A stretch of DNA of 64,000 bases, from contig DAOQAL010000002.1 in assembly GCA_035353995.1 (NCBI GenBank), positions 28,729 through 92,728 on the forward strand. Direction: 5' to 3'. The DNA comes from Minisyncoccota bacterium (GTDB lineage: Bacteria; Patescibacteriota; Minisyncoccia; Phycocordibacterales; UBA9973). The notes beneath the pieces are model-generated. The model did no database searches. It was given only the letters and a program-made list of their open reading frames with translations, and was not told the DNA's origin. The position numbers were made by a program, and so were the translations under genes. Of the stretch, positions 7,713-62,348 are shown piece by piece. The stretch's first letter is position 1; the number at the start of each line of letters is the position of its first letter.

Positions 7713-7900
7713 TGAAACTCGTTGTTGGATATTTATATTCGATAACTTATTGAGTCGGTATTGTACGCCTCAATTGAGCGTACAATGGTTTATTTGAACC
7801 TAAAACAAAATGACAAGTATGGAAAGACATACAAATAAAAAAGTTTACTCTGCTTCGGTGGAGGAAAGAACGAAACAAAACAAAGAACAGCTAATAAAAA

Positions 7901-15367: not shown

Positions 15368-16702
15368 ATGGATAGTTATAAACAATTTTTTAAGGACAAA
15401 AAAATAACCGTTATGGGACTCGGGCTTTTAGGGCGTGGACTTGGTTATACTAAATTTTTGGCTGAATGTGGCGCTGATTTAATCGTTACTGATTTGAAGA
15501 CAAAGAAGCAATTAGCAACTTCTTTAAAACAATTGGGCAAATATAAGAACATTAAATATGTTCTTGGTGAGCATCGATTAGAAGATTTTAAAAATAGAGA
15601 GATGATAGTAAAAGCTGCTGGTGTTCCATTTGATTCTATTTATATAAAAGAGGCGAAAAAAAATAATATTCCGATTGAAATGGATGTTTCACTTTTTGCA
15701 AAACTTGCTCCGCAGGTAATAATTGTCGGTGTTACAGGTACTCGTGGTAAATCTATGACTGCTATGCTCATTTACGAAATTCTTTCCAAGAATTTGAAAG
15801 ATAAAAAAGTATATCTTGGTGGAAATATCCGTGGAGTTGCAACTTTGCCTTTGCTTGAAAAAGCAAAACCCGGTGATGTTTTGGTTTGCGAGCTAGATTC
15901 ATGGCAATTACAAGGTTTTGGTGATGCTAAAATGTCTCCGCATATTTCCATCTTCACTTCTTTTATGCCGGATCATATGAATTATTATAAAAATTCTATG
16001 AAAGATTATTTTGCTGATAAGATGAATATTTTCAAATATCAAAAAAAGAATGATTTCTTAATAATTCGACCGCACGTAGAAAAATTGATAAGTAAAAAAG
16101 TAAAAAGTAAGATAATAGTAGCTGATGTAAAAAAATTAGTTGGTTTTAAATTTGTTGTTCCAGGAGAGCATCAAAGAGAAAACCTAGCTTGTGCTTTTGA
16201 AGTTGCTAGACTTTTTAAAATTCCTATCGTTAAAATTAAGAACACAGTCAAAAATTTTAAAGGAATAGAAGGCAGATTGCAACATTTAAAAACTGTTCGT
16301 GGAATAAAAATTTACAATGATAATAATGCGACTACTCCAGAAGCTACAATAGCAGGTATTAAAGCTTTGTATCAAGATGGTAAAGAAGGCAAAATTGTTT
16401 TGATTTCTGGCGGAGCAGATAAAAAGCTTGATTTGAAGCTTTATGTGAATGTTGTGAATACTTTTTGTAAGGCTATAGTACTTATTCCTGGTAGTGGAAC
16501 GAATGTTTTGTTGAAAGATTACAAATTAAAAATTCCATATGTGGTAGGAAAAGATTTTAAAGATGCTGTTTTAAAGGGATTAGATTTTACAAAAAAAGGG
16601 GATGTTCTGCTCTTTTCTCCAGCCTTTGCTTCATTTGGTATTTTCAATAATGAATACGAAAGAAATGATTTATTTGTGAAGTTAATTAATAAGTTAAAAT
16701 AG
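15368..16702 (+). CDS. murD: UDP-N-acetylmuramoylalanine--D-glutamate ligase (MurD)
   Basis: N-terminal Rossmann-like segment ITVMGLGLLGRGLG and P-loop VGVTGTRGKSMTAMLI, with a Mur ligase C-domain. Confidence 0.85.
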   Translation: MDSYKQFFKDKKITVMGLGLLGRGLGYTKFLAECGADLIVTDLKTKKQLATSLKQLGKYKNIKYVLGEHRLEDFKNREMIVKAAGVPFDSIYIKEAKKNNIPIEMDVSLFAKLAPQVIIVGVTGTRGKSMTAMLIYEILSKNLKDKKVYLGGNIRGVATLPLLEKAKPGDVLVCELDSWQLQGFGDAKMSPHISIFTSFMPDHMNYYKNSMKDYFADKMNIFKYQKKNDFLIIRPHVEKLISKKVKSKIIVADVKKLVGFKFVVPGEHQRENLACAFEVARLFKIPIVKIKNTVKNFKGIEGRLQHLKTVRGIKIYNDNNATTPEATIAGIKALYQDGKEGKIVLISGGADKKLDLKLYVNVVNTFCKAIVLIPGSGTNVLLKDYKLKIPYVVGKDFKDAVLKGLDFTKKGDVLLFSPAFASFGIFNNEYERNDLFVKLINKLK

Positions 16703-16706
16703 AATT

Positions 16707-16916
16707 ATGAAAAAAGAAATAGAAAAAGATTACACAAAAAAGCAAACTATAAAAATTCTAAAAAGATTAGCTGATTCTTTGGGTAAAAATAAGGCTTTTA
16801 GAATGCAAATCAAAAACAAGAAAGTTTACATTCCTAAAGAGTCGGAAATTCAGATAGAATACGAAAAAGAGAAAAAGGAAGAAAAAATAGAAATCGAAAT
16901 AAAATGGGGGAAATAA
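16707..16916 (+). CDS. Small acidic protein, amphi-Trp-domain-like (C-terminal ...IEIEIKWGK)
   Basis: 69 aa with an amphipathic N-terminal helix and an alternating charged C-terminus ending in Trp. Confidence 0.35.
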   Translation: MKKEIEKDYTKKQTIKILKRLADSLGKNKAFRMQIKNKKVYIPKESEIQIEYEKEKKEEKIEIEIKWGK

Positions 16917-16957
16917 AATTAAATTACACAGGGTAGTCCTGTGTAAAATTAGAAGTA

Positions 16958-16978
16958 GTGTCAAAGACCGTCTTTGAC
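16958..16978. repeat. REP-like perfect 21-bp palindrome TGTCAAAGACCGTCTTTGACA (copy A, intergenic)
   Basis: Exact copy of the palindrome that flanks the RAYT gene. It shares an extended ~34-bp unit with copy B (AGAAGTA-R-TGTCAAAGAC-S-GTCTTTGACAAATT). Confidence 0.6.
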
Positions 16979-17005
16979 AAATTATAAAGAATTTAAAATG
17001 AATTT

Positions 17006-17494
17006 ATGAAAATACCAGTTGTAAATGAAAATGATGAAGTAATAGAAATTAAGGACAGAAAAGATGTGGATAAAAGTCCTGAGCTAATTTACCGCGTTTC
17101 TTATCTTTGGGTTACTGATACTAATGGAAGAATACTTTTGGCTCAACGGGCATTTAATAAAAATCATAATCCAGGTAAATGGGGTCCAGCAGTAGCTGGT
17201 ACAGTTGAAGAAGGAGAAACTTATGAATCAAATATAATTAAAGAAACCGAAGAAGAAATTGGTATTAAGGACGTAAAATTAAAAATTGGGCAAAAAGAAA
17301 GAAGAAAAACTAATTATAATTATTTTGCACAAGAATTTTTGCTTGAATTGCCAGCTGGTTTTAATGATTTTAAAATTCAAGAAGTGGAGGTCGCTCAAAT
17401 TAAATGGTTTACTAAAGAGGAATTAAAAAAAGAGTTACAAGAGCACCCAGACAATTTTTTGTCATTAATTAAAAACAAAATTGATTTAATATGA
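17006..17494 (+). CDS. NUDIX hydrolase
   Basis: Nudix box GTVEEGETYESNIIKETEEEIGI (Gx5Ex7REUxEExGU). Confidence 0.7.
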   Translation: MKIPVVNENDEVIEIKDRKDVDKSPELIYRVSYLWVTDTNGRILLAQRAFNKNHNPGKWGPAVAGTVEEGETYESNIIKETEEEIGIKDVKLKIGQKERRKTNYNYFAQEFLLELPAGFNDFKIQEVEVAQIKWFTKEELKKELQEHPDNFLSLIKNKIDLI

Positions 17495-18738
17495 ATTTAG
17501 ACTTATCAAAAATTAAAAAGGTATATTTTATCGGAATCGGGGGAATTGGAATTTCGGCATTGGCGAAATGGGCCAGTGCGCGTGGAATGGAAGTTGCGGG
17601 TGTAAACGATGAAGAAGGAAAAACGACAGACTCCCTTAGAGAATTTGGTATAGAAGTAATGTCAAAGACGGTCTTTGACAAATTGCCAGAAGCTGATATG
17701 TATGTTTACTCAGATGCTTGGCTTAACCGTGGTCCAGAAATAATAGAAGACGCACGAAATACTGGTAAGCCAACCTTGTCTTATTTTGAAGCTCTTAAAG
17801 AATTTTCCAAAGATTATAAAGTTATAGCAATTTCTGGAACTCATGGTAAAACTACGACTACTGCAATGGTTGCTGATATATTAATTGATGCGGGCATAGA
17901 CCCGACGGTTATTGTTGGTTCTTTTGTTAAAAAGTTTGATAGTAATTTTCGAGAAGGCAAGAGTGAATATTTAATAGTAGAAGCTGACGAATATAATCGT
18001 CATTTTTTACAATTTAATCCTTTCATTGGTGCAGTAACCAACATCGAAGCTGACCATTTGGATTGTTATAAAGATTTAGATGATATAAAAAAATCTTTTG
18101 ATCAGTTTTTATCTCAAAGTGAACACAAAATAACAAATTACGAAAAATATTTAGAAAAAGTTCCCAAACTTCTTGTCCCTGGAGAGCACAACAGAAAAAA
18201 TGCAGCCTTAGCTCTTGCTGTTGCAGATCTTTTGGGTATTAAGGAAGAGCTTGCTATAAAATCTTTAGAAAATTTTGAAGGAACTTGGCGTCGTTTGGAA
18301 AAACGAGGGAAGACAAAAGCTGGTACCATTATTTATGATGATTATGCTCATCACCCAACAGAAGTTCGAGCTAGCTTGCAAGCATTAAGAGAGCTTTATA
18401 CAAAAGAACAAGGCAAAAAAATAACTGTAGTCTTTCAGCCACATTTGTATTCCAGAACCAAGGCTCTTTTTGACGATTTTGCCAAATGTTTCCACGGGGC
18501 GGACAAAATCGTCCTTTTGCCTATTTATTTTGCTAGAGAAAACCCTGATAAAAGCATTTCAAGCGGTCTTTTAGCAGATGCTATATGTGCAAATGGTGAT
18601 AAAGCTATAGCTTTTACTGATTTTGAACTGGCAGAAGAATATATAAAGAGTCAAACCTTTGGTAAAGATGACATTTTTGTGACTATGGGTGCAGGGGAGT
18701 CTTATAAAATAGCCGATAAGCTGTTTGATTTTCAATAA
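17491..18738 (+). CDS. murC: UDP-N-acetylmuramate--L-alanine ligase (MurC)
   Basis: VYFIGIGGIGISALA N-terminal motif, P-loop ISGTHGKTTTTAMVA, and a Mur ligase C-terminal domain. Codons 57-64 (MSKTVFDK) are encoded by the REP palindrome. Confidence 0.85.
   Translation: MNLDLSKIKKVYFIGIGGIGISALAKWASARGMEVAGVNDEEGKTTDSLREFGIEVMSKTVFDKLPEADMYVYSDAWLNRGPEIIEDARNTGKPTLSYFEALKEFSKDYKVIAISGTHGKTTTTAMVADILIDAGIDPTVIVGSFVKKFDSNFREGKSEYLIVEADEYNRHFLQFNPFIGAVTNIEADHLDCYKDLDDIKKSFDQFLSQSEHKITNYEKYLEKVPKLLVPGEHNRKNAALALAVADLLGIKEELAIKSLENFEGTWRRLEKRGKTKAGTIIYDDYAHHPTEVRASLQALRELYTKEQGKKITVVFQPHLYSRTKALFDDFAKCFHGADKIVLLPIYFARENPDKSISSGLLADAICANGDKAIAFTDFELAEEYIKSQTFGKDDIFVTMGAGESYKIADKLFDFQ
17660..17680. 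repeat. REP-like 21-bp palindrome TGTCAAAGACGGTCTTTGACA (copy B) lying in frame inside murC
   Basis: The same palindrome with the central base flipped. It lies within the murC reading frame without interrupting it. Confidence 0.6.
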
Positions 18739-19006: not shown

Positions 19007-19627
19007 ATGGAAAATAAAAACTTGATACGTTTTGTGGAATCATTTGTTTTGTTACCATTTATGACAATATCTATGCCACTTGGGAGTGTAACCGAGAATC
19101 AGGCAAATACTGTTCTAGATTCACAAATAACGTTATCACCAAAAGAAAATATCGAAACTTTAGGATTGCTTGCCTTTAACCAGGAAGTTGATCAGAAAGT
19201 TAACACCCTAAAGATAAAAGCAGAAGCTATTGATGCCTACTTTAAAGAGCACGATATGCCCCTTTTAGGAAAAGGAGAAAAGCTAGTAGAGGAAGCTGAG
19301 AAAAATAATCTTGATTGGCGTCTTTTAGCTGCCATAGCTGTTCGAGAATCTACTGGTGGAAAACATGATTGTAAAAAGGTAGAAAATAACCCATTCGGTT
19401 GGGGTTCTTGTAAAATCGGTTTTAAAACACTAGATGAGGCTATCGAAACCATTGGACGAAACTTGGGTGGAAATAACCCTAACACAGCACATCACTATTC
19501 AGGTAAGGATACAAAAGATATACTTCAAAAATATAACCCACCTTCTATAGTTAAGAATTATGCTGAACAGGTTATGTCTATAATGGATGAAATAGGAGAT
19601 AAAGATATAACAATTCTAAACTCTTAA
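19007..19627 (+). CDS. Secreted peptidoglycan hydrolase, glucosaminidase (FlgJ/LytD-like) domain
   Basis: N-terminal hydrophobic leader; NLDWRLLAAIAVRESTGG...NNPFGWG resembles the ESGWG...NN(L/P)FG(I/W) signature of mannosyl-glycoprotein endo-beta-N-acetylglucosaminidase domains. Confidence 0.5.
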   Translation: MENKNLIRFVESFVLLPFMTISMPLGSVTENQANTVLDSQITLSPKENIETLGLLAFNQEVDQKVNTLKIKAEAIDAYFKEHDMPLLGKGEKLVEEAEKNNLDWRLLAAIAVRESTGGKHDCKKVENNPFGWGSCKIGFKTLDEAIETIGRNLGGNNPNTAHHYSGKDTKDILQKYNPPSIVKNYAEQVMSIMDEIGDKDITILNS

Positions 19628-19652
19628 AAAACCACCCAATGGGTGGTTTTTT
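19626..19652. terminator. Bidirectional intrinsic terminator between two convergent genes
   Basis: A6-CCACCC-AAT-GGGTGG-T6. Confidence 0.6.
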
Positions 19653-19659
19653 AGTTTAT

Positions 19660-25427: not shown

Positions 25428-27890
25428 ATGGCTAAAAAAACAATTGATCCAATAGAAAAAAAACCAAGAGAAGATGAAATTCTTCCAGTAAACATAGTTA
25501 GCGAAATGAAAGAGTCGTATTTGGCTTATGCTATGTCTGTTATTACATCACGTGCATTGCCAGACGTAAGAGATGGATTAAAACCTGTTCACAGAAGAAT
25601 ATTATTTGCTATGAATGAAATGGGACTTACTTCAAGTTCTAGATTTAGAAAATCCGCTGCTGTTGTTGGAGATGTTTTAGGAAAATATCATCCTCACGGA
25701 GATGTGGCAGTGTATGACACAATGGTTGGTATGGCACAAGAATTTTCTTATCGTTATCCTTTTATTTTAGGTCAAGGTAACTTTGGTTCTATAGATGGAG
25801 ACAGTGCAGCTGCAATGCGTTATACAGAGACGAAGATGGCAAAAATTTCTAATGAACTTTTAAAAGATTTAGATAAAGAAACAGTTGATTTTCGTCCAAA
25901 CTATGACCAAACACGTAAAGAACCGACAGTTCTTCCTGCAGCTGTTCCCGCATTGTTATTAAATGGAACACTTGGTATTGCTGTTGGTATGGCAACGAAT
26001 ATCCCACCTCACAATTTAGCAGAAGTTGTAGATGCAACAAGATTTTTAATTGATAAAGAAGATGCAACTACAGAAGATTTAATGCAATTTATTAAAGGGC
26101 CTGATTTTCCTACTGGTGGAATTGCTTATGGATATAAAGATATTCTTCATGCATATTCTTCAGGACGTGGAGGTGTTGTTTGTAGAGGAGAAGCTGAAAT
26201 AATTGAAACAAAAGGAGGAATGTACCAAATAGTTATAACTTCTATTCCTTTTAGAGTAAATAAAGCAAACTTAATAATGTCTATTGCAGACCTTGTTCAA
26301 GAAAAAAAGCTTGAAGGTATAAAAGGGTTAAGAGATGAATCTACAAAAGATATTCGTATAGTTATTGATTTAAAAAGTGGTGCTCATCCTGAAAAAATTC
26401 TAAATTATATTTATAAAAATACTCAACTTGAATCAAATTTCAATTTTAATATTGTTGCATTAGTTGATGGAGTGCCACAAACACTTTCTCTAAAATCTAT
26501 TCTTGTTGAATTTATTGCTCATAGACGTGATGTTATAAAAAGAAGATGTCAATATGATTTAAGAAAAGCTGAAGAACGTGAACATATTTTATTAGGTCTT
26601 AAAAAAGCCCTTGATAAAATTGATAGAATCATAACTGTTATAAGAAATTCAAAAGACGCACAGATTGCAAAAATAAATTTGATAAAGGAATTTAAATTTT
26701 CTGATTTGCAGGCAGCTGCAATATTAGAAATTAAATTACAGAAATTAGCTGGATTAGAAAGAAAAGCAGTGGAAGATGAATTAGCAGAAAAACAGAAATT
26801 TATTAAGGAAATGAAAGAACTTTTAACAAGTCCTAAAAAAATGTTGAAAGTTGTATCAGACGAATTAAAAGAAATTCGTGATAGATATTTTGATGAGAGA
26901 AGAACAAAAATAATTAAAGGAGGAGTGAAAGAAATTAATGATGAAGATTTGATTCCAGATACAGAAACTGTTCTTGTTTTCACTGCTGGTGGATACGTAA
27001 AACGTACTGATCCTAGTGAATACAGAGCACAAAAGAGAGGGGGAGTTGGTGTTGTGGATTTAGAAACAAAAGAAGAAGATTTTGTAACGATGCTTGTTTC
27101 AGGGTCTACTCATAATGATTTGTTGTTCTTTACTAATACAGGAAAAGCTTATCAAATGAAAATGTATGATATTCCTGAAGGACGTCGTGCAACAAAAGGA
27201 AAATCAATTATGAACTTCTTGTCTCTTTCTGGAGATGAAAAAGTCACATCTATTTTGTCTCTACCAAAAGAAGCCAAAAAACTTCCTTCTTCTTTGGTTC
27301 TTGTAACAAAAAATGGAACAGCGAAAAAAATGTCAGGGGAAAGCTTTAAAGATGTTCGCCGAAGTGGAATTATTTCAATAAGATTAGATAAAGGTGACCA
27401 ATTAGTTCAAGCTCTTTTAGTTGATAAAGGTGACGAGATAATGATTGCAACAGAAGGAGGTCAGTCAATAAGATTCAAAGAAAGTGATGTTAGAGAAATG
27501 GGAAGAACTGCTGGCGGAGTGCGAGGAATTAAATTAGGAAAAAATGATGAAGTAATTGGTGTTGATGTTATTAAAAAAGATCAAAAAGATGGAGCATTTC
27601 TTACAATGAGTGCAAATGGTTTTGGTAAAAAAACTGCTCTTAAAGAATATAAAGTACAAAAGCGTGGTGGTTCAGGAATCAAAACAGCAAAAGTTACAAC
27701 AAAAACAGGAAAATTGATTGTAGCAAAAGTTTTGAGTACTGAAGAAGAAGAACTAATAGCAATGTCAAAAAAGGGACAAGTAATTAGAACTGCTCTAAAA
27801 GATATTCCATCATTAGGACGTCAAACTCAAGGAGTTACAATAATGCGTCTTCGCGCAGGGGACGGTATTGCATCTCTTACCTGCATGTAA
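25428..27890 (+). CDS. gyrA: DNA gyrase subunit A
   Basis: [26 protein letters not shown], the active-site Tyr region, and C-terminal beta-pinwheel repeats with GyrA-box-like QKRGGSG. Confidence 0.95.
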
Positions 27891-27909: not shown

Positions 27910-27930
27910 TGTCAAAGACCGTCTTTGACA
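27910..27930. repeat. REP palindrome TGTCAAAGACCGTCTTTGACA (copy C) overlapping the 3' end of the RAYT gene
   Basis: The last 7 codons of the RAYT ORF (KHVKDGL*) are read from this palindrome. Confidence 0.65.
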
Positions 27931-28541
27931 TGCTTGGTGTTATTGGCTATAGTTTCTTTTTCGAAATCTTTTTTGCTGAAAACTGATTCTAAAAAATCTT
28001 TAAATACGATTGATGAATTTCTATTTTCGGTAAAATCTTTATAGCTACTCCATTTATATTGACCAGGGTGTTTAACTAAACCATCCTTTACTGGATTCAT
28101 ATGTATATAAGCGGAAGTCCACATAAACTGCGGATTGTTTTCAATATTTACTGCTTTAAATTTATCTTGAAATACATGTCCAACTTTTTTATATTTTAAA
28201 TTTAGATATTTTGCATAGCTAGTACATGTTTGAGATATTAGCCTAGAAATAGGAACATCTCCGCATTGTTCTATCAATAAATGAAAATGATTTGGCATAA
28301 GGCAAAAAGAATGTAATTTAAATGATTTAGCATTTCCGTTTATTCTAATTCGTGAATTTTTTACTGACGATATGTCATCTTTTTTTAGAATTTCTTTATC
28401 TACTCCGAGAGATAGACCAAGTCTAAAAAGGAAAGCATTATAGTCGCTTTCTTCGTGGAAAATTTTTTCTTTATTATTACCTCGATTGTAAACATGCACC
28501 AAAGCACCAGGCATAAATGTTTTATAGTCTCTATTGTTCAT
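27912..28541 (-). mobile_element. REP-associated tyrosine transposase (RAYT), IS200/IS605 TnpA-like Y1 HUH enzyme
   Basis: HUH motif CLMPNHFHLLI. C-terminal catalytic-Tyr helix FMWTSAYIHMNPVKDGLVKHPGQYKWSSYKDF closely parallels E. coli RAYT (YafM) ...[28 protein letters not shown] as recalled from memory. N-terminal HVYNRGNNKEKIF. Flanked on both sides by the same palindrome. Confidence 0.8.
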
Positions 28542-28551
28542 AAATCAATTA

Positions 28552-28572
28552 TGTCAAAGACCGTCTTTGACA
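28552..28572. repeat. REP palindrome TGTCAAAGACCGTCTTTGACA (copy D), 11 bp upstream of the RAYT start codon
   Basis: Exact 21-bp copy. Confidence 0.65.
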
Positions 28573-40751: not shown

Positions 40752-43454
40752 ATGCCACCACTTAACAAATTTACAACTAAAGCAAAGGATGCAATAAAAA
40801 AGGCTCACGAGCTTGCAATTGAGCGTGGTCAAAATCACGTTTCTTCATTGCACTTGCTTGCAGCTCTTTTACTTCAAGATGAAAGTATGGTTAATTCCAT
40901 TCTAGACAGATTAGAGGTAGATACTATGCTATTAACTGATTCCATTTTGGAATTAATAGAAACACCAGAAACTAGAAGTACTATTTCTCCAGCCTATCAA
41001 ATTTATTTAAATGCAGATTTTGCACAAGCAATAGAACATTCAGTTAAATTAGCAGAATACTTGAAAGATGAATTTGTTTCTACTGAACATTTATTTGTTG
41101 CTATATTGGAAGTTCCTGGAGAAGCTCGTGAAGTTTTGGCAAGACATAGAATTAATAAAGATCTTGTATTAAAAGTTTTAGAAGAACTTCGTAGTCAAAA
41201 TATTACTGATGTTAGCGAACCTAAAAAGTTTAAATTAATTTTGAAATATACTAGAAATTTAACTAAGCTTGCAAAAGAAGATAAGCTAGACCCTGTTATA
41301 GGAAGAGACAGCGAAATAACTAGAATAATGCAAATACTTTCTCGCAGAACAAAAAATAATCCTATTTTAATAGGTGAGGCTGGTACTGGAAAAACTGCAG
41401 TCGTTGAAGGTTTGGCTCAAAGAATTTCAAAAAACAATGTTCCAGAATCTTTAAGAGAAAAAGAGCTTGTTTCACTAGATCTTGGAATGCTTATTGCTGG
41501 TACTAAATATCGTGGAGAATTTGAAGAAAGATTAAAAGGCATAATGAAAGAAATAGAAAGAGCAGAAGGAAAAATAATTTTATTCATTGATGAAATACAT
41601 ACTATTGTTGGTGCTGGTGGTGGTGAGGGAACTATGGATGCTTCGAATATGTTGAAGCCTGCACTTTCTCGTGGAGAGTTAAGAGCAATTGGTGCTACTA
41701 CTTTAAAAGAATATCAAAAATATATTGAAAAAGATCCAGCTTTGGCTCGTCGTTTTCAACCTGTTTATATAGAAGAGCCGAGCGTGGAAGATGCTATTGC
41801 TATTTTGCGTGGGCTTAAAGAAAAATATGAACTTTTCCACGGAATACGTATTACAGATGATGCTATAGTTTCTGCTGTAAATCTTTCTACACGTTATATT
41901 ACGAATAGATTTTTGCCAGACAAGGCTGTTGATTTGATAGATGAAGCGTCATCTTCATTAAAAATAATGTTGGAAAATAAACCACCAGTGTTAGAAGATG
42001 CTCATAGAAAAATAATGCGTCTTGAAATTGAAAAGGAAGCTCTAAAAAAAGAAATTGAAGAAGAATATTCTGAGGATAAGAGTAAAAAAAATAGAATTAA
42101 AGCAATTGATAAAGAGATAGGGAATTTAAAAGAAAAAACAAAAGAACTTGAATTAAAGTGGCAAAACGAAAAAGCAATTGTAGTTGAAACTAGTTCAATA
42201 AAAAAAGAACTTGATGCTCTTCGTGTTGAAGCAGAAAATGCTGAGATGAGAACTGATCTTTCAAAGGCTGCGGAAATTCGCTATGGTAAAATCCCAATGC
42301 TTAAAAAAGAACTTGATACAAAATTAGCACGTCTCAAAAAATTACAAAAATCTAGAAGAATATTGAAAGAAGAAATTACTGCAGAAGATATTGCTGAAGT
42401 TGTAGCACGATGGACAGGTATTCCTCTTTCAAAGATGCTTGAAGAAGAGCGTGCAAAATTGGAAAAAATGGAAGAAGAATTATATAAGAGAGTTATTGGA
42501 CAGAAAGATGCAATTAAAAGAGTTGCTGATGTAATTCGTCGTTCTCGTGCTGGAATTTCTGATCCTAATAGGCCTATTGGTTCATTTATTTTCTTAGGCC
42601 CATCAGGAGTTGGAAAAACAGAACTTACAAAAGCTCTTGCTCAATTTATGTTTAATGATGATAGAGCGCTTATTAGAGTTGATATGTCTGAATATATGGA
42701 AAAATATTCAGTTTCAAAACTTATAGGTTCTCCACCTGGTTATGTTGGATATGAAGAATCAGGCCAATTAACTGAAGCAGTAAGGCATAGACCATATTCT
42801 GTTGTTCTTTTTGACGAAATAGAAAAGGCACATCCAGAAGTATTTAATATGTTACTTCAAGTTATAGATGAGGGAAGATTAACAGACGGAAAAGGTAGAG
42901 TTGTAAATTTTAAAAATTCAATTATTATTTTGACGTCAAATATCGGTTCTCAATTTGTTGAAAAAATGGAATCAATAGGATTTTCAAATAATTCAGATAG
43001 AGATGATTACAGTAATATGAAAGATAAAGTTCTTGAATCTTTGAAAGAAAATTTCCGACCAGAATTTTTGAATCGTTTGGACGAAATTATAGTTTTTGAT
43101 GTCCTATCAAAAGAAGCAATTATTGAAATAGTGAAATTGAGAGTAGAAATGGTAAAAGAAAGATTACTTGCGAAAGGAATCCATTTCAAAATTTCTGATG
43201 ATGCATTGTCTCTGTTGGCAGAAAAAGGATATGATCCACATTATGGTGCAAGACCTATTAATCGTTTGATTCAAAATAAAATTTTGAATCCTGTTGCGTC
43301 ATATATTATTTCAAATGATGTAAAAAATGGAGATATGATTGCTGTGTCTGTAAAAAATAATGAAATATTTATTGAAAATCAAAAGGAACATTCAAAACAC
43401 ATAAAAAAAATTCAAAGTCCAATTATTACATCACAGCGTTCGCCAAAGAAATAA
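40752..43454 (+). CDS. clpB: ATP-dependent chaperone ClpB
   Basis: Clp N domain, two AAA+ modules ([15 protein letters not shown]; [15 protein letters not shown]), long M-domain coiled coil, C-terminal ClpB_D2-small domain. Confidence 0.9.
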
Positions 43455-43457
43455 ATT

Positions 43458-43485
43458 AAAAATCTCCCTTCAAAGGGAGATTTTT
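43458..43485. terminator. Intrinsic terminator after clpB
   Basis: AAAAATCTCCCTT-CAAA-GGGAGATTTTT. Confidence 0.6.
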
Positions 43486-43553
43486 AATTTGGTGCGCCGG
43501 GTAGGAGCGCTTCGCATTTCTCTCCTTACAGAAGCTTGAATTTTTTAATATAG

Positions 43554-62217: not shown

Positions 62218-62237
62218 AAAGATAAACTCCATTTTGA

Positions 62238-62348
62238 TACAGTATACTGTAGCAAATTAAATCCATTAATACAATTTATAACAGTATACTGTGGTAAATT
62301 GAATTTACCTATGTAATTTATAACAGTTTACTGTGATAAATTGAATTT
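62238..62348. repeat. Three tandem 42-bp repeats, each carrying the 12-bp palindrome ACAGTATACTGT (third copy ACAGTTTACTGT) and a TAAATTGAATTTA palindrome
   Basis: Palindrome copies begin at 62239, 62281 and 62323 with exact 42-bp spacing. They sit in the convergent gap between the Cys-rich gene and the PaaX-like gene. Confidence 0.6.

Follow-up and report, generated by a model that had tools for sequence, protein, structure and literature searches.

A probable local copy of a hairpin-bearing murC patch, and its palindrome family, in a Minisyncoccota bacterium

Introduction

Repetitive extragenic palindromic (REP) sequences on either side of the gene for a REP-associated tyrosine transposase (RAYT) are a classic arrangement. 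A 64,000-nt stretch of the genome of a Minisyncoccota bacterium (Patescibacteriota; GenBank assembly GCA_035353995.1, contig DAOQAL010000002.1, positions 28,729 to 92,728), hereafter called the window, contains four copies of a perfect 21-bp palindrome, TGTCAAAGAC-S-GTCTTTGACA, starting at positions 16959 (copy A), 17660 (copy B), 27910 (copy C) and 28552 (copy D), where none was expected. Copies C and D flank a RAYT-like gene, copy B lies in frame in murC, the gene for UDP-N-acetylmuramate--L-alanine ligase, and copy A lies in a spacer upstream of a NUDIX hydrolase gene. Copies A and B share a 34-nt unit, and the analysis described here indicates that copy A derives from the murC site, probably as a local copy of a 34-nt murC patch.

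A RAYT gene with its flanking REPs has been called a REPtron, and the REP superfamilies are tagged with GTAG or CGTC (Di Nocera et al. 2013, PMC3733652). Intragenic REPs are also documented, with in-frame cases such as RPE-4/6 of Rickettsia and those of Opitutus (PMC3733652). The present locus agrees with the REP/RAYT arrangement in having a short palindrome on both sides of a single HUH/Y1 gene, a syntenic transposase locus, and TnpA-REP as the best match of the transposase in the PDB. It differs in that the palindrome is perfect over 21 bp, with a 3-nt loop and without a GTAG or CGTC tag, and in that the transposase scores below the curated NCBI cut-off (65 vs 80 bits). In addition, few copies are seen locally, four in the 64 kb of the window, the repeat is common to many divergent lineages of Patescibacteria rather than species-specific, and it is mostly intragenic and in one reading frame, with the stop codon of the transposase gene inside the repeat. 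A literature search found no paper linking RAYTs or REPs with Patescibacteria, which is absence of evidence only.

Rickettsia palindromic elements (RPEs) reportedly lie in frame in intact genes (Ogata et al. 2000), RPE-1 being 100-150 bp long. The palindrome described here is likewise found in frame in intact genes, including housekeeping and repair genes such as that for UvrC, but it is only seven codons long. It also makes no net insertion in murC of the window, where it replaces a heptad in register (five amino acids are gained in one relative, L126; L numbers denote fetched loci), and it differs further from RPEs in its linkage to a RAYT gene and in reappearing at one and the same site in lineages that lie dispersed on the gene tree. 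REPINs, as Bertels and Rainey are said to have described them, are RAYT-associated repeats accompanied by a vertically inherited, single-copy RAYT. The present repeats are also RAYT-associated and form close doublets in relatives, including doublets with the variant GTCAAGGACNGTCCTTGAC; unlike REPINs, however, the copies in the window form no doublet, doublets 25-40 bp apart being found only in L084, L085 and L022, and the copied unit is a single hairpin with donor flanks. In the 'peel and paste' transposition of the IS200/IS605 family (IS608, ISDra2), a Y1 HUH enzyme that recognises hairpins cuts single-stranded DNA from a few to about 20 nt from the foot of the hairpin, so that the mobilisation of a hairpin along with short stretches beside it has a precedent. 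The left and right ends of such elements have imperfect hairpins that differ from each other, and insertion is on the 3' side of a fixed tetra- or pentanucleotide, which likewise adjoins the donor. In contrast to these elements, both ends of the RAYT-like gene carry the same perfect palindrome rather than distinct left and right ends, no target motif is shared to the left of copies A and B, and there is a single transposase copy in the window.

Results

Copies A and B and the murC site

The 34-nt unit, TAGAAGTA[G/A]TGTCAAAGAC[C/G]GTCTTTGACAAATT, was found at two sites in the window, 16950-16983 (copy A) and 17651-17684 (copy B), which share 32 of the 34 nt and differ only at the R position (G/A) and at the centre of the palindrome (C/G). 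The asymmetric pattern TAGAAGTARTGTCAAAGACSGTCTTTGACAAATT had exactly two matches, both on the + strand; no third match was present in the window even when up to 3 mismatches were allowed, and shuffled sequences gave 0. In both units the palindrome (16959-16979 in copy A, 17660-17680 in copy B) is preceded by 9 nt and followed by 4 nt. Copy A (+ strand) lies in the spacer between an Amphi-Trp domain open reading frame (ORF) and the NUDIX gene, and copy B (+ strand) reads (M)SKTVFD in frame within murC, with flanks encoding I-E-V and K-L. The flanks of these two copies, which are separated by 701 bp, point the same way, and copies C and D, which have flanks different from those of A and B, are 642 bp apart around the RAYT-like ORF. 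Each palindrome copy is predicted to fold into a 9-bp stem with a 3-nt loop. Relaxed patterns revealed no degenerate or variant palindromes in the 64-kb window. The data examined from the source genome consist of this window; the closest of the fetched loci is about 81 % identical, and none of them is from the same genome.

An earlier reading of the DNA letters and ORFs (the sequence-only reading) had already described a shared unit of about 34 bp extending beyond the palindromic core, the gene context (Amphi-Trp, NUDIX and murC, with copies C and D flanking a Y1_Tnp ORF) and the different flanks of copies C and D. All of these were confirmed, the unit by its two exact occurrences and by agreement at 12 of 13 flank positions against at most 8 in about 240 other oriented copies. 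Its coordinates for copy B were right and those for copy A were off by one (16958-16978 instead of 16959-16979). The REPIN-type paired arrangement that it had proposed looking for is absent from the window, as the spacings above indicate.

At least five further Patescibacteria genomes (L030, L088, L109, L116 and L126) have this palindrome at the corresponding codons of murC, and decayed versions of it occupy this site in L118 and L120. The sequences flanking copy B, GIEV and KLPEAD, are conserved in 120 MurC homologues whether or not the palindrome is present, and the flank codons are kept in palindrome-bearing orthologues (L109, L030, L088, L116, L118 and L120) as well as in palindrome-free ones (L127 and L031). 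The 9 nt to the left and 4 nt to the right of the palindrome are thus native murC sequence and not part of a mobile unit. Judged by these orthologues, copy B is long-established and orthologous across genomes. The base at the centre of the palindrome, which is both the apex of the hairpin and the four-fold degenerate third position of a Thr codon, is G, C or T among the murC orthologues.

Copy A is noncoding, yet it bears murC flank bases: its 9 + 4 flanking nucleotides are identical or near-identical to murC coding sequence. At these 13 positions copy A agrees with copy B at 12 and with the murC orthologues at 9-10, whereas approximately 240 other oriented copies, from other genomes, agree with it at no more than 8 and typically at 2-6. 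With the murC site of L116 it shares an uninterrupted run of 28 nucleotides, which includes both positions at which it differs from copy B. These two positions, the first base of a Met/Val codon and the loop apex, are both variable among the murC orthologues. Since the flanks of copy B are native murC codons and are also found at copy A, copy A derives from the murC site. Copy A was absent from every relative examined that shares the neighbourhood or a NUDIX orthologue, and no similarity to murC was found beyond the 34 nt on either side of it (outer identity 0.10-0.29, which is background). An assembly artefact is made less likely by the records of the identical NUDIX protein, in the same neighbourhood, on 10 contigs. 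On this sequence evidence, copies A and B are related, with flanks that come from murC and with copy A specific to its lineage; the direction of copying is from murC to the spacer, only copy A being new. The sequence-only reading had supposed a recent local duplication. This stands for copy A, which is local and lineage-specific, but not for copy B, which is old and orthologous and was not recently mobilised.

The palindrome adds no length to murC of the window. In comparison with native relatives and with solved MurC structures it replaces the native heptad in register; a solved MurC aligns without gaps through MSKTVFD, the equivalent residues being YIGHEAE in 6CAU, and the seven-residue slot in relatives is of the LKKDFK type. 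The native DNA of L127, TGATTTTAAAAAAAGATTTTAAAAGT, is colinear with the repeat and forms an A/T quasi-palindrome identical to it at 12 of 21 positions, with G/C in the repeat and A/T in the native sequence at 8 of the 9 differences. In L126 the palindrome follows the native heptad and adds five residues, and in UvrC it stands in place of FTGT-HD and lengthens the protein by one residue. An ancient insertion followed by A/T decay was considered as the sole origin of the LKKDFK heptad and is disfavoured; the native motif is found throughout the tree and aligns with canonical MurC, and the native heptad was therefore treated as ancestral.

The site corresponds to a hypervariable loop of the MurC N-terminal domain. 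Among the 120 homologues most have a native (L/F)(K/Q)KD(F/Y)K heptad in this loop, 8 have exactly SKTVFD, about 15 have an MSK..FD-like sequence, and others have unrelated inserts; one (P0097; P numbers denote MurC homologues) has MSRTVLD. The loop of L031 (about 7800-7860, minus strand) holds another G+C-rich, partly palindromic insert, CCCGCCGAAGCCTTGGCGAAGGCGGG, of a type that encodes DLPAEALAKAG or SAEALAEAD, and P0074, P0059, P0104, P0005 and P0006 are listed with L031 for alternative loop inserts. Still other lineages have an insert of about 25 residues, REEFFESAPSETKGQGTHTILKIP, in the same loop. From these alignments the loop would be a hotspot at which repeat-like sequences of various kinds tend to insert.

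In a tree of the C-terminal part of MurC, the 24 palindrome carriers took 20 steps and looked randomly distributed. The N-terminal class of MurC disagrees with the C-terminal tree (26 parsimony steps), the presence of the palindrome tracks the N-terminal class (19/24 vs 32/96), and the identity of the window MurC to its homologues differs between the two parts, a mosaic signal that may be inflated, as the 120 homologues were picked by similarity to the window query. The N-terminal part of MurC thus seems to have a history different from that of the C-terminal part. Such a pattern could have come about by in-register replacement that happened repeatedly at a hotspot, or by lineages exchanging short murC 5' segments.

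The palindrome family and the RAYT-like gene

The RAYT-like ORF (27912-28541, - strand, 209 amino acids) contains HFH and YIHMNPV motifs and is convergent with gyrA (25428-27890). It matched Pfam Y1_Tnp with 40.2 bits (cut-off 23) and the NCBIfam equivalog REP_Tyr_transpos (NF047646), its only match in that collection, with 65.2 bits (E = 5.8e-18), which is below the curated 80. In the alignment with its best PDB match, 4ER8 (E. coli TnpA-REP), HFH aligns with HMH and YIHMNPV with YIYINPV. On the strength of these matches it can be regarded as a divergent RAYT-like HUH/Y1 transposase, present in one copy in the window. Copy C (27910-27930) overlaps the 3' end of the ORF, whose last residues VKDGL and stop codon it encodes, and copy D (28552-28572) lies 10 nt upstream of the start codon. 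RAYT orthologues with 56-64 % identity are bracketed by the palindrome in 8 other genomes and adjoin the 3' end of gyrA in 9; the stop codon inside the downstream palindrome (VKDGL*) was listed for the window and for L015, L024, L053, L060, L106 and L113. This synteny ties the palindrome to the RAYT gene as the hairpin repeat of a RAYT-type system, one that many Patescibacteria have inherited at a fixed position downstream of gyrA. A conserved NCAAG motif was observed outside the upstream palindrome of the RAYT genes, with ATAAT inside it, 6-10 nt before the ATG, a layout that may represent a promoter or serve autoregulation.

When one genome per species was scanned, the 19-mer core matched at least 115 loci. 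Among the matches listed, nearly all were from Patescibacteria (Nomura-, Zambryski-, Paceibacterota and Saccharibacteria), and the following family-wide counts are likewise for the matches listed. Some further matches were in metagenome-assembled genomes from outside the Patescibacteria (Prevotellaceae, Terracidiphilus; L007, L012, L047, L099 and L100); these may be chance or unrelated matches, several having an A/T centre or an atypical flanking base. A contig labelled Simkania (L060/L098) has the full gyrA-RAYT locus and may be misbinned.

The repeat does not have the extragenic location that defines REPs: copy B lies in murC, and 83 of 135 distinct copies fall within ORFs that are 120 codons or longer, always in the one frame that gives (M/L/V)SKTVFD. 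The centre base was G in 60, C in 58, T in 8 and A in 6 of 132 copies, and on the coding strand G in 39, C in 35, T in 6 and A in 4, so that no orientation is preferred. Outside the 19-mer only R-T...A-Y is conserved in the 132 copies (R at -2 and T at -1), and neither a GTAG nor a CGTC tag emerged from their flank profile. At copy A, the adjacent GTAG was considered as an E. coli REP tag and rejected; it corresponds to murC codons (E-V-V) and is not enriched in the family.

The same palindrome was also seen in frame at orthologous positions of other housekeeping genes in different genomes, namely in uvrC (L005, L025, L071, L073 and L102; in the GIY-YIG domain, after RVKSY), in RNase H-like genes (L014 and L068) and in the further ortholog groups L004/L058, L064/L097 and L043/L045/L072. 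The compensated variant GTCAAGGACNGTCCTTGAC, translated as SRTVLD, is often separated by 10-30 nt from a GTCAAAGAC copy, with which it makes an in-frame doublet; it was seen near L010, L027, L048, L052, L057, L062, L063, L080, L104, L111 and L115, and none was found in the window. TTGACA is the consensus -35 hexamer. Each of the four window copies has TTGACA on both strands (e.g. 16974-16979), which could make outward promoter halves. For copy A, the hexamer most similar to a -10 element, TAAAAT, stands at a spacing of only 14 nt, and promoter prediction gave no call there.

Neighbouring genes and other inverted repeats

The Amphi-Trp ORF upstream of copy A (16707-16916, + strand) matched Pfam PF20068 with E = 3.1e-07. 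It is followed by the NUDIX hydrolase gene (17006-17494, + strand) and murC (17491-18738, + strand), so that copies A and B bracket the NUDIX gene and the first 160 bp of murC. The identity of murC follows from its Mur_ligase, Mur_ligase_M and Mur_ligase_C Pfam domains, from homologues named MurC at source and from the alignment of solved MurC structures; with its three Mur ligase domains, murC is intact despite the in-frame palindrome. Between murD and murC is a slot of variable gene cassettes, which in the window holds the NUDIX gene. In this interval (15368-17494 in the window; also L116, L118, L120, L123, L124, L126 and L127) every relative has different, tightly packed small genes, including those for NUDIX proteins of two unrelated types, HAD, peptidase S51, alpha/beta hydrolase, HIT, Tle3-like and DUF proteins, and the NUDIX genes of the window and L116 are non-orthologous. 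This gene content suggests frequent turnover of cassettes beside the murC palindrome.

Directly after the stop codon of the Amphi-Trp ORF, and 3 nt before the unit of copy A, is a further hairpin with a 9-bp stem, TTACACAGG-GTAGT-CCTGTGTAA (16924-16946), which looks like a terminator (called on the - strand). It was considered as a second repeat family and rejected, being unique in the window and unrelated to the palindrome. Three other inverted repeats of the window are likewise unrelated to the palindrome family: one at 43453-43490 with 18-nt arms (AAATTAAAAATCTCCCTT/AAGGGAGATTTTTAATTT) and one at 19625-19653 with 14-nt arms (TAAAAAACCACCCA/TGGGTGGTTTTTTA), both probably bidirectional terminators, and an imperfect palindrome with 65-nt arms near 62.2 kb (62225-62348).

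Discussion

The reading that we consider probable is that copy A is a secondary local copy of a 34-nt murC patch, placed 701 bp upstream by a hairpin-centred short-patch event. We infer that the event took place on single-stranded DNA, and two routes to it can be envisaged. Y1 transposases such as IS608 and TnpA-REP cut a short distance from their hairpins, and by this precedent a Y1 enzyme would cut a few bases on either side of the hairpin and then rejoin the piece. Alternatively, replication could have switched template between the two sites 700 bp apart. Either route, cleavage and joining by a Y1 enzyme or template switching, would fit the data.

Several observations weigh against a patch-copying event. 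Read directly, the sequence at the two junctions of copy A shows neither a target-site duplication nor microhomology, so that neither route has left a visible signature. In IS608 the left flank of the donor equals the target site; the bases to the left of copy A (AAAAT) differ from those to the left of copy B (TGGTA), which does not fit this rule. No second copy with donor flanks was found among the within-genome pairs in the fetched loci, so that the event would be rare and its mechanism could not be generalised. Finally, a scan of metagenome contigs with the 29-mer core of the unit gave 0 matches; as it missed the source contig itself, it is weak evidence and says nothing on the copy number in the genome.

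The strongest competitor, which we hold to be unlikely but worth keeping in mind, is that copy A is the footprint of a cassette exchange. According to this explanation recombination at the murC palindrome brought in the NUDIX gene together with the first 160 bp of murC, and copy A is the leftover palindrome site of the old allele, whose murC 5' end had been deleted. The variability of the murD-murC slot, with its different small hydrolase genes in each relative and the non-orthologous NUDIX genes of the window and L116, is as this explanation would have it, as is the position of A and B as direct repeats bracketing exactly the NUDIX gene and the 5' end of murC. At both variable positions copy A also has the bases of the L116 murC allele, and the N-terminal class of MurC, which the palindrome follows, conflicts with the C-terminal tree. 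However, the similarity to murC stops at 34 nt around copy A, and two breakpoints would be needed, both within 9 nt of the hairpin. Copy A is furthermore nearer to copy B of its own genome (12/13) than to any orthologue, and the mosaic signal is possibly inflated by the query-based choice of homologues.

Improbable, to a greater degree, is the explanation that copies A and B are two protein-binding operators kept identical by selection and controlling a NUDIX-murC operon, for example by looping. The two sites do bracket the start of the operon, palindromes are typical of operators, and this one has TTGACA on both strands. Nevertheless, coding constraint accounts for the flanks of copy B, the relatives retain the murC site without an upstream partner, no promoter-like site was called at copy A on the + strand, and the occurrence of the same palindrome in dozens of unrelated genes is a better fit to a repeat family.

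Very unlikely in our view is the interpretation put forward in the sequence-only reading, of two REP subfamilies of which one, a mobile 34-bp element, had inserted independently and in opposite orientations into the spacer and into murC. The agreement of A and B at 32 of 34 nt and the RAYT-like gene 10 kb away speak for it, and it took the flipped centre base as a sign of opposite orientation. The asymmetric flanks, however, run the same way in both copies, and the centre base varies freely among the murC orthologues and in the family as a whole. The flanks of copy B are conserved murC codons that are also present in palindrome-free orthologues, no flank consensus beyond R-T...A-Y exists in the 132 copies, and the palindrome is found at the same murC site in other genomes. 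No other copy in the window or among about 240 oriented copies from other genomes has these flanks: the flank identity is confined to A and B and is explained by local duplication, with which the idea of subfamilies fails. That the palindrome inserted twice independently in an A+T-rich genome and the flanks resemble each other by chance can practically be dismissed, since, although low-complexity flanks (AAAAT/ATTTT) do give some long shared flanks among unrelated copies compared all against all, copy A agrees with B at 12 of 13 positions against no more than 8 for about 240 other copies, the flanks concerned are not of low complexity, and 28 nt match the murC of L116.

In-frame REPs and REPs flanking a RAYT gene have already been described, and the present case is a variant in which the repeat is untagged, perfect, shared across lineages, mostly intragenic and in one frame. 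A wider reading, which we put forward tentatively and regard as rather less likely than its alternatives taken together, is that Patescibacteria have a phylum-wide, vertically inherited RAYT/REP system whose hairpin resides mainly in essential genes and spreads by short templated patches rather than by classical insertion. This reading comes from the overwriting of the murC heptad in register, at a weakly palindromic A/T sequence and without a change in length, and from the recurrence of the palindrome at the same codons in scattered lineages. If it were true, copy A with its 13 nt of donor flanks would be a direct trace of patch-copying. The murC hairpin may also serve as a recombination boundary for the upstream cassette slot.

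The finding itself is modest. The A/B pair is a small footnote, a hairpin repeat copied together with a few donor flank bases, which constrains how REP-like elements spread; to our knowledge, the step in which such elements are copied with donor flanks has never been observed directly. In annotation, MSKTVFD segments are encoded by the repeat and should not be taken as functional motifs. The palindrome family matters more and merits a proper survey. It would make testable whether such repeats are kept up by selection, by conversion or by repeated targeting, and whether they act as markers of recombination boundaries in streamlined genomes, and it would extend REP/RAYT biology to reduced, host-dependent bacteria.

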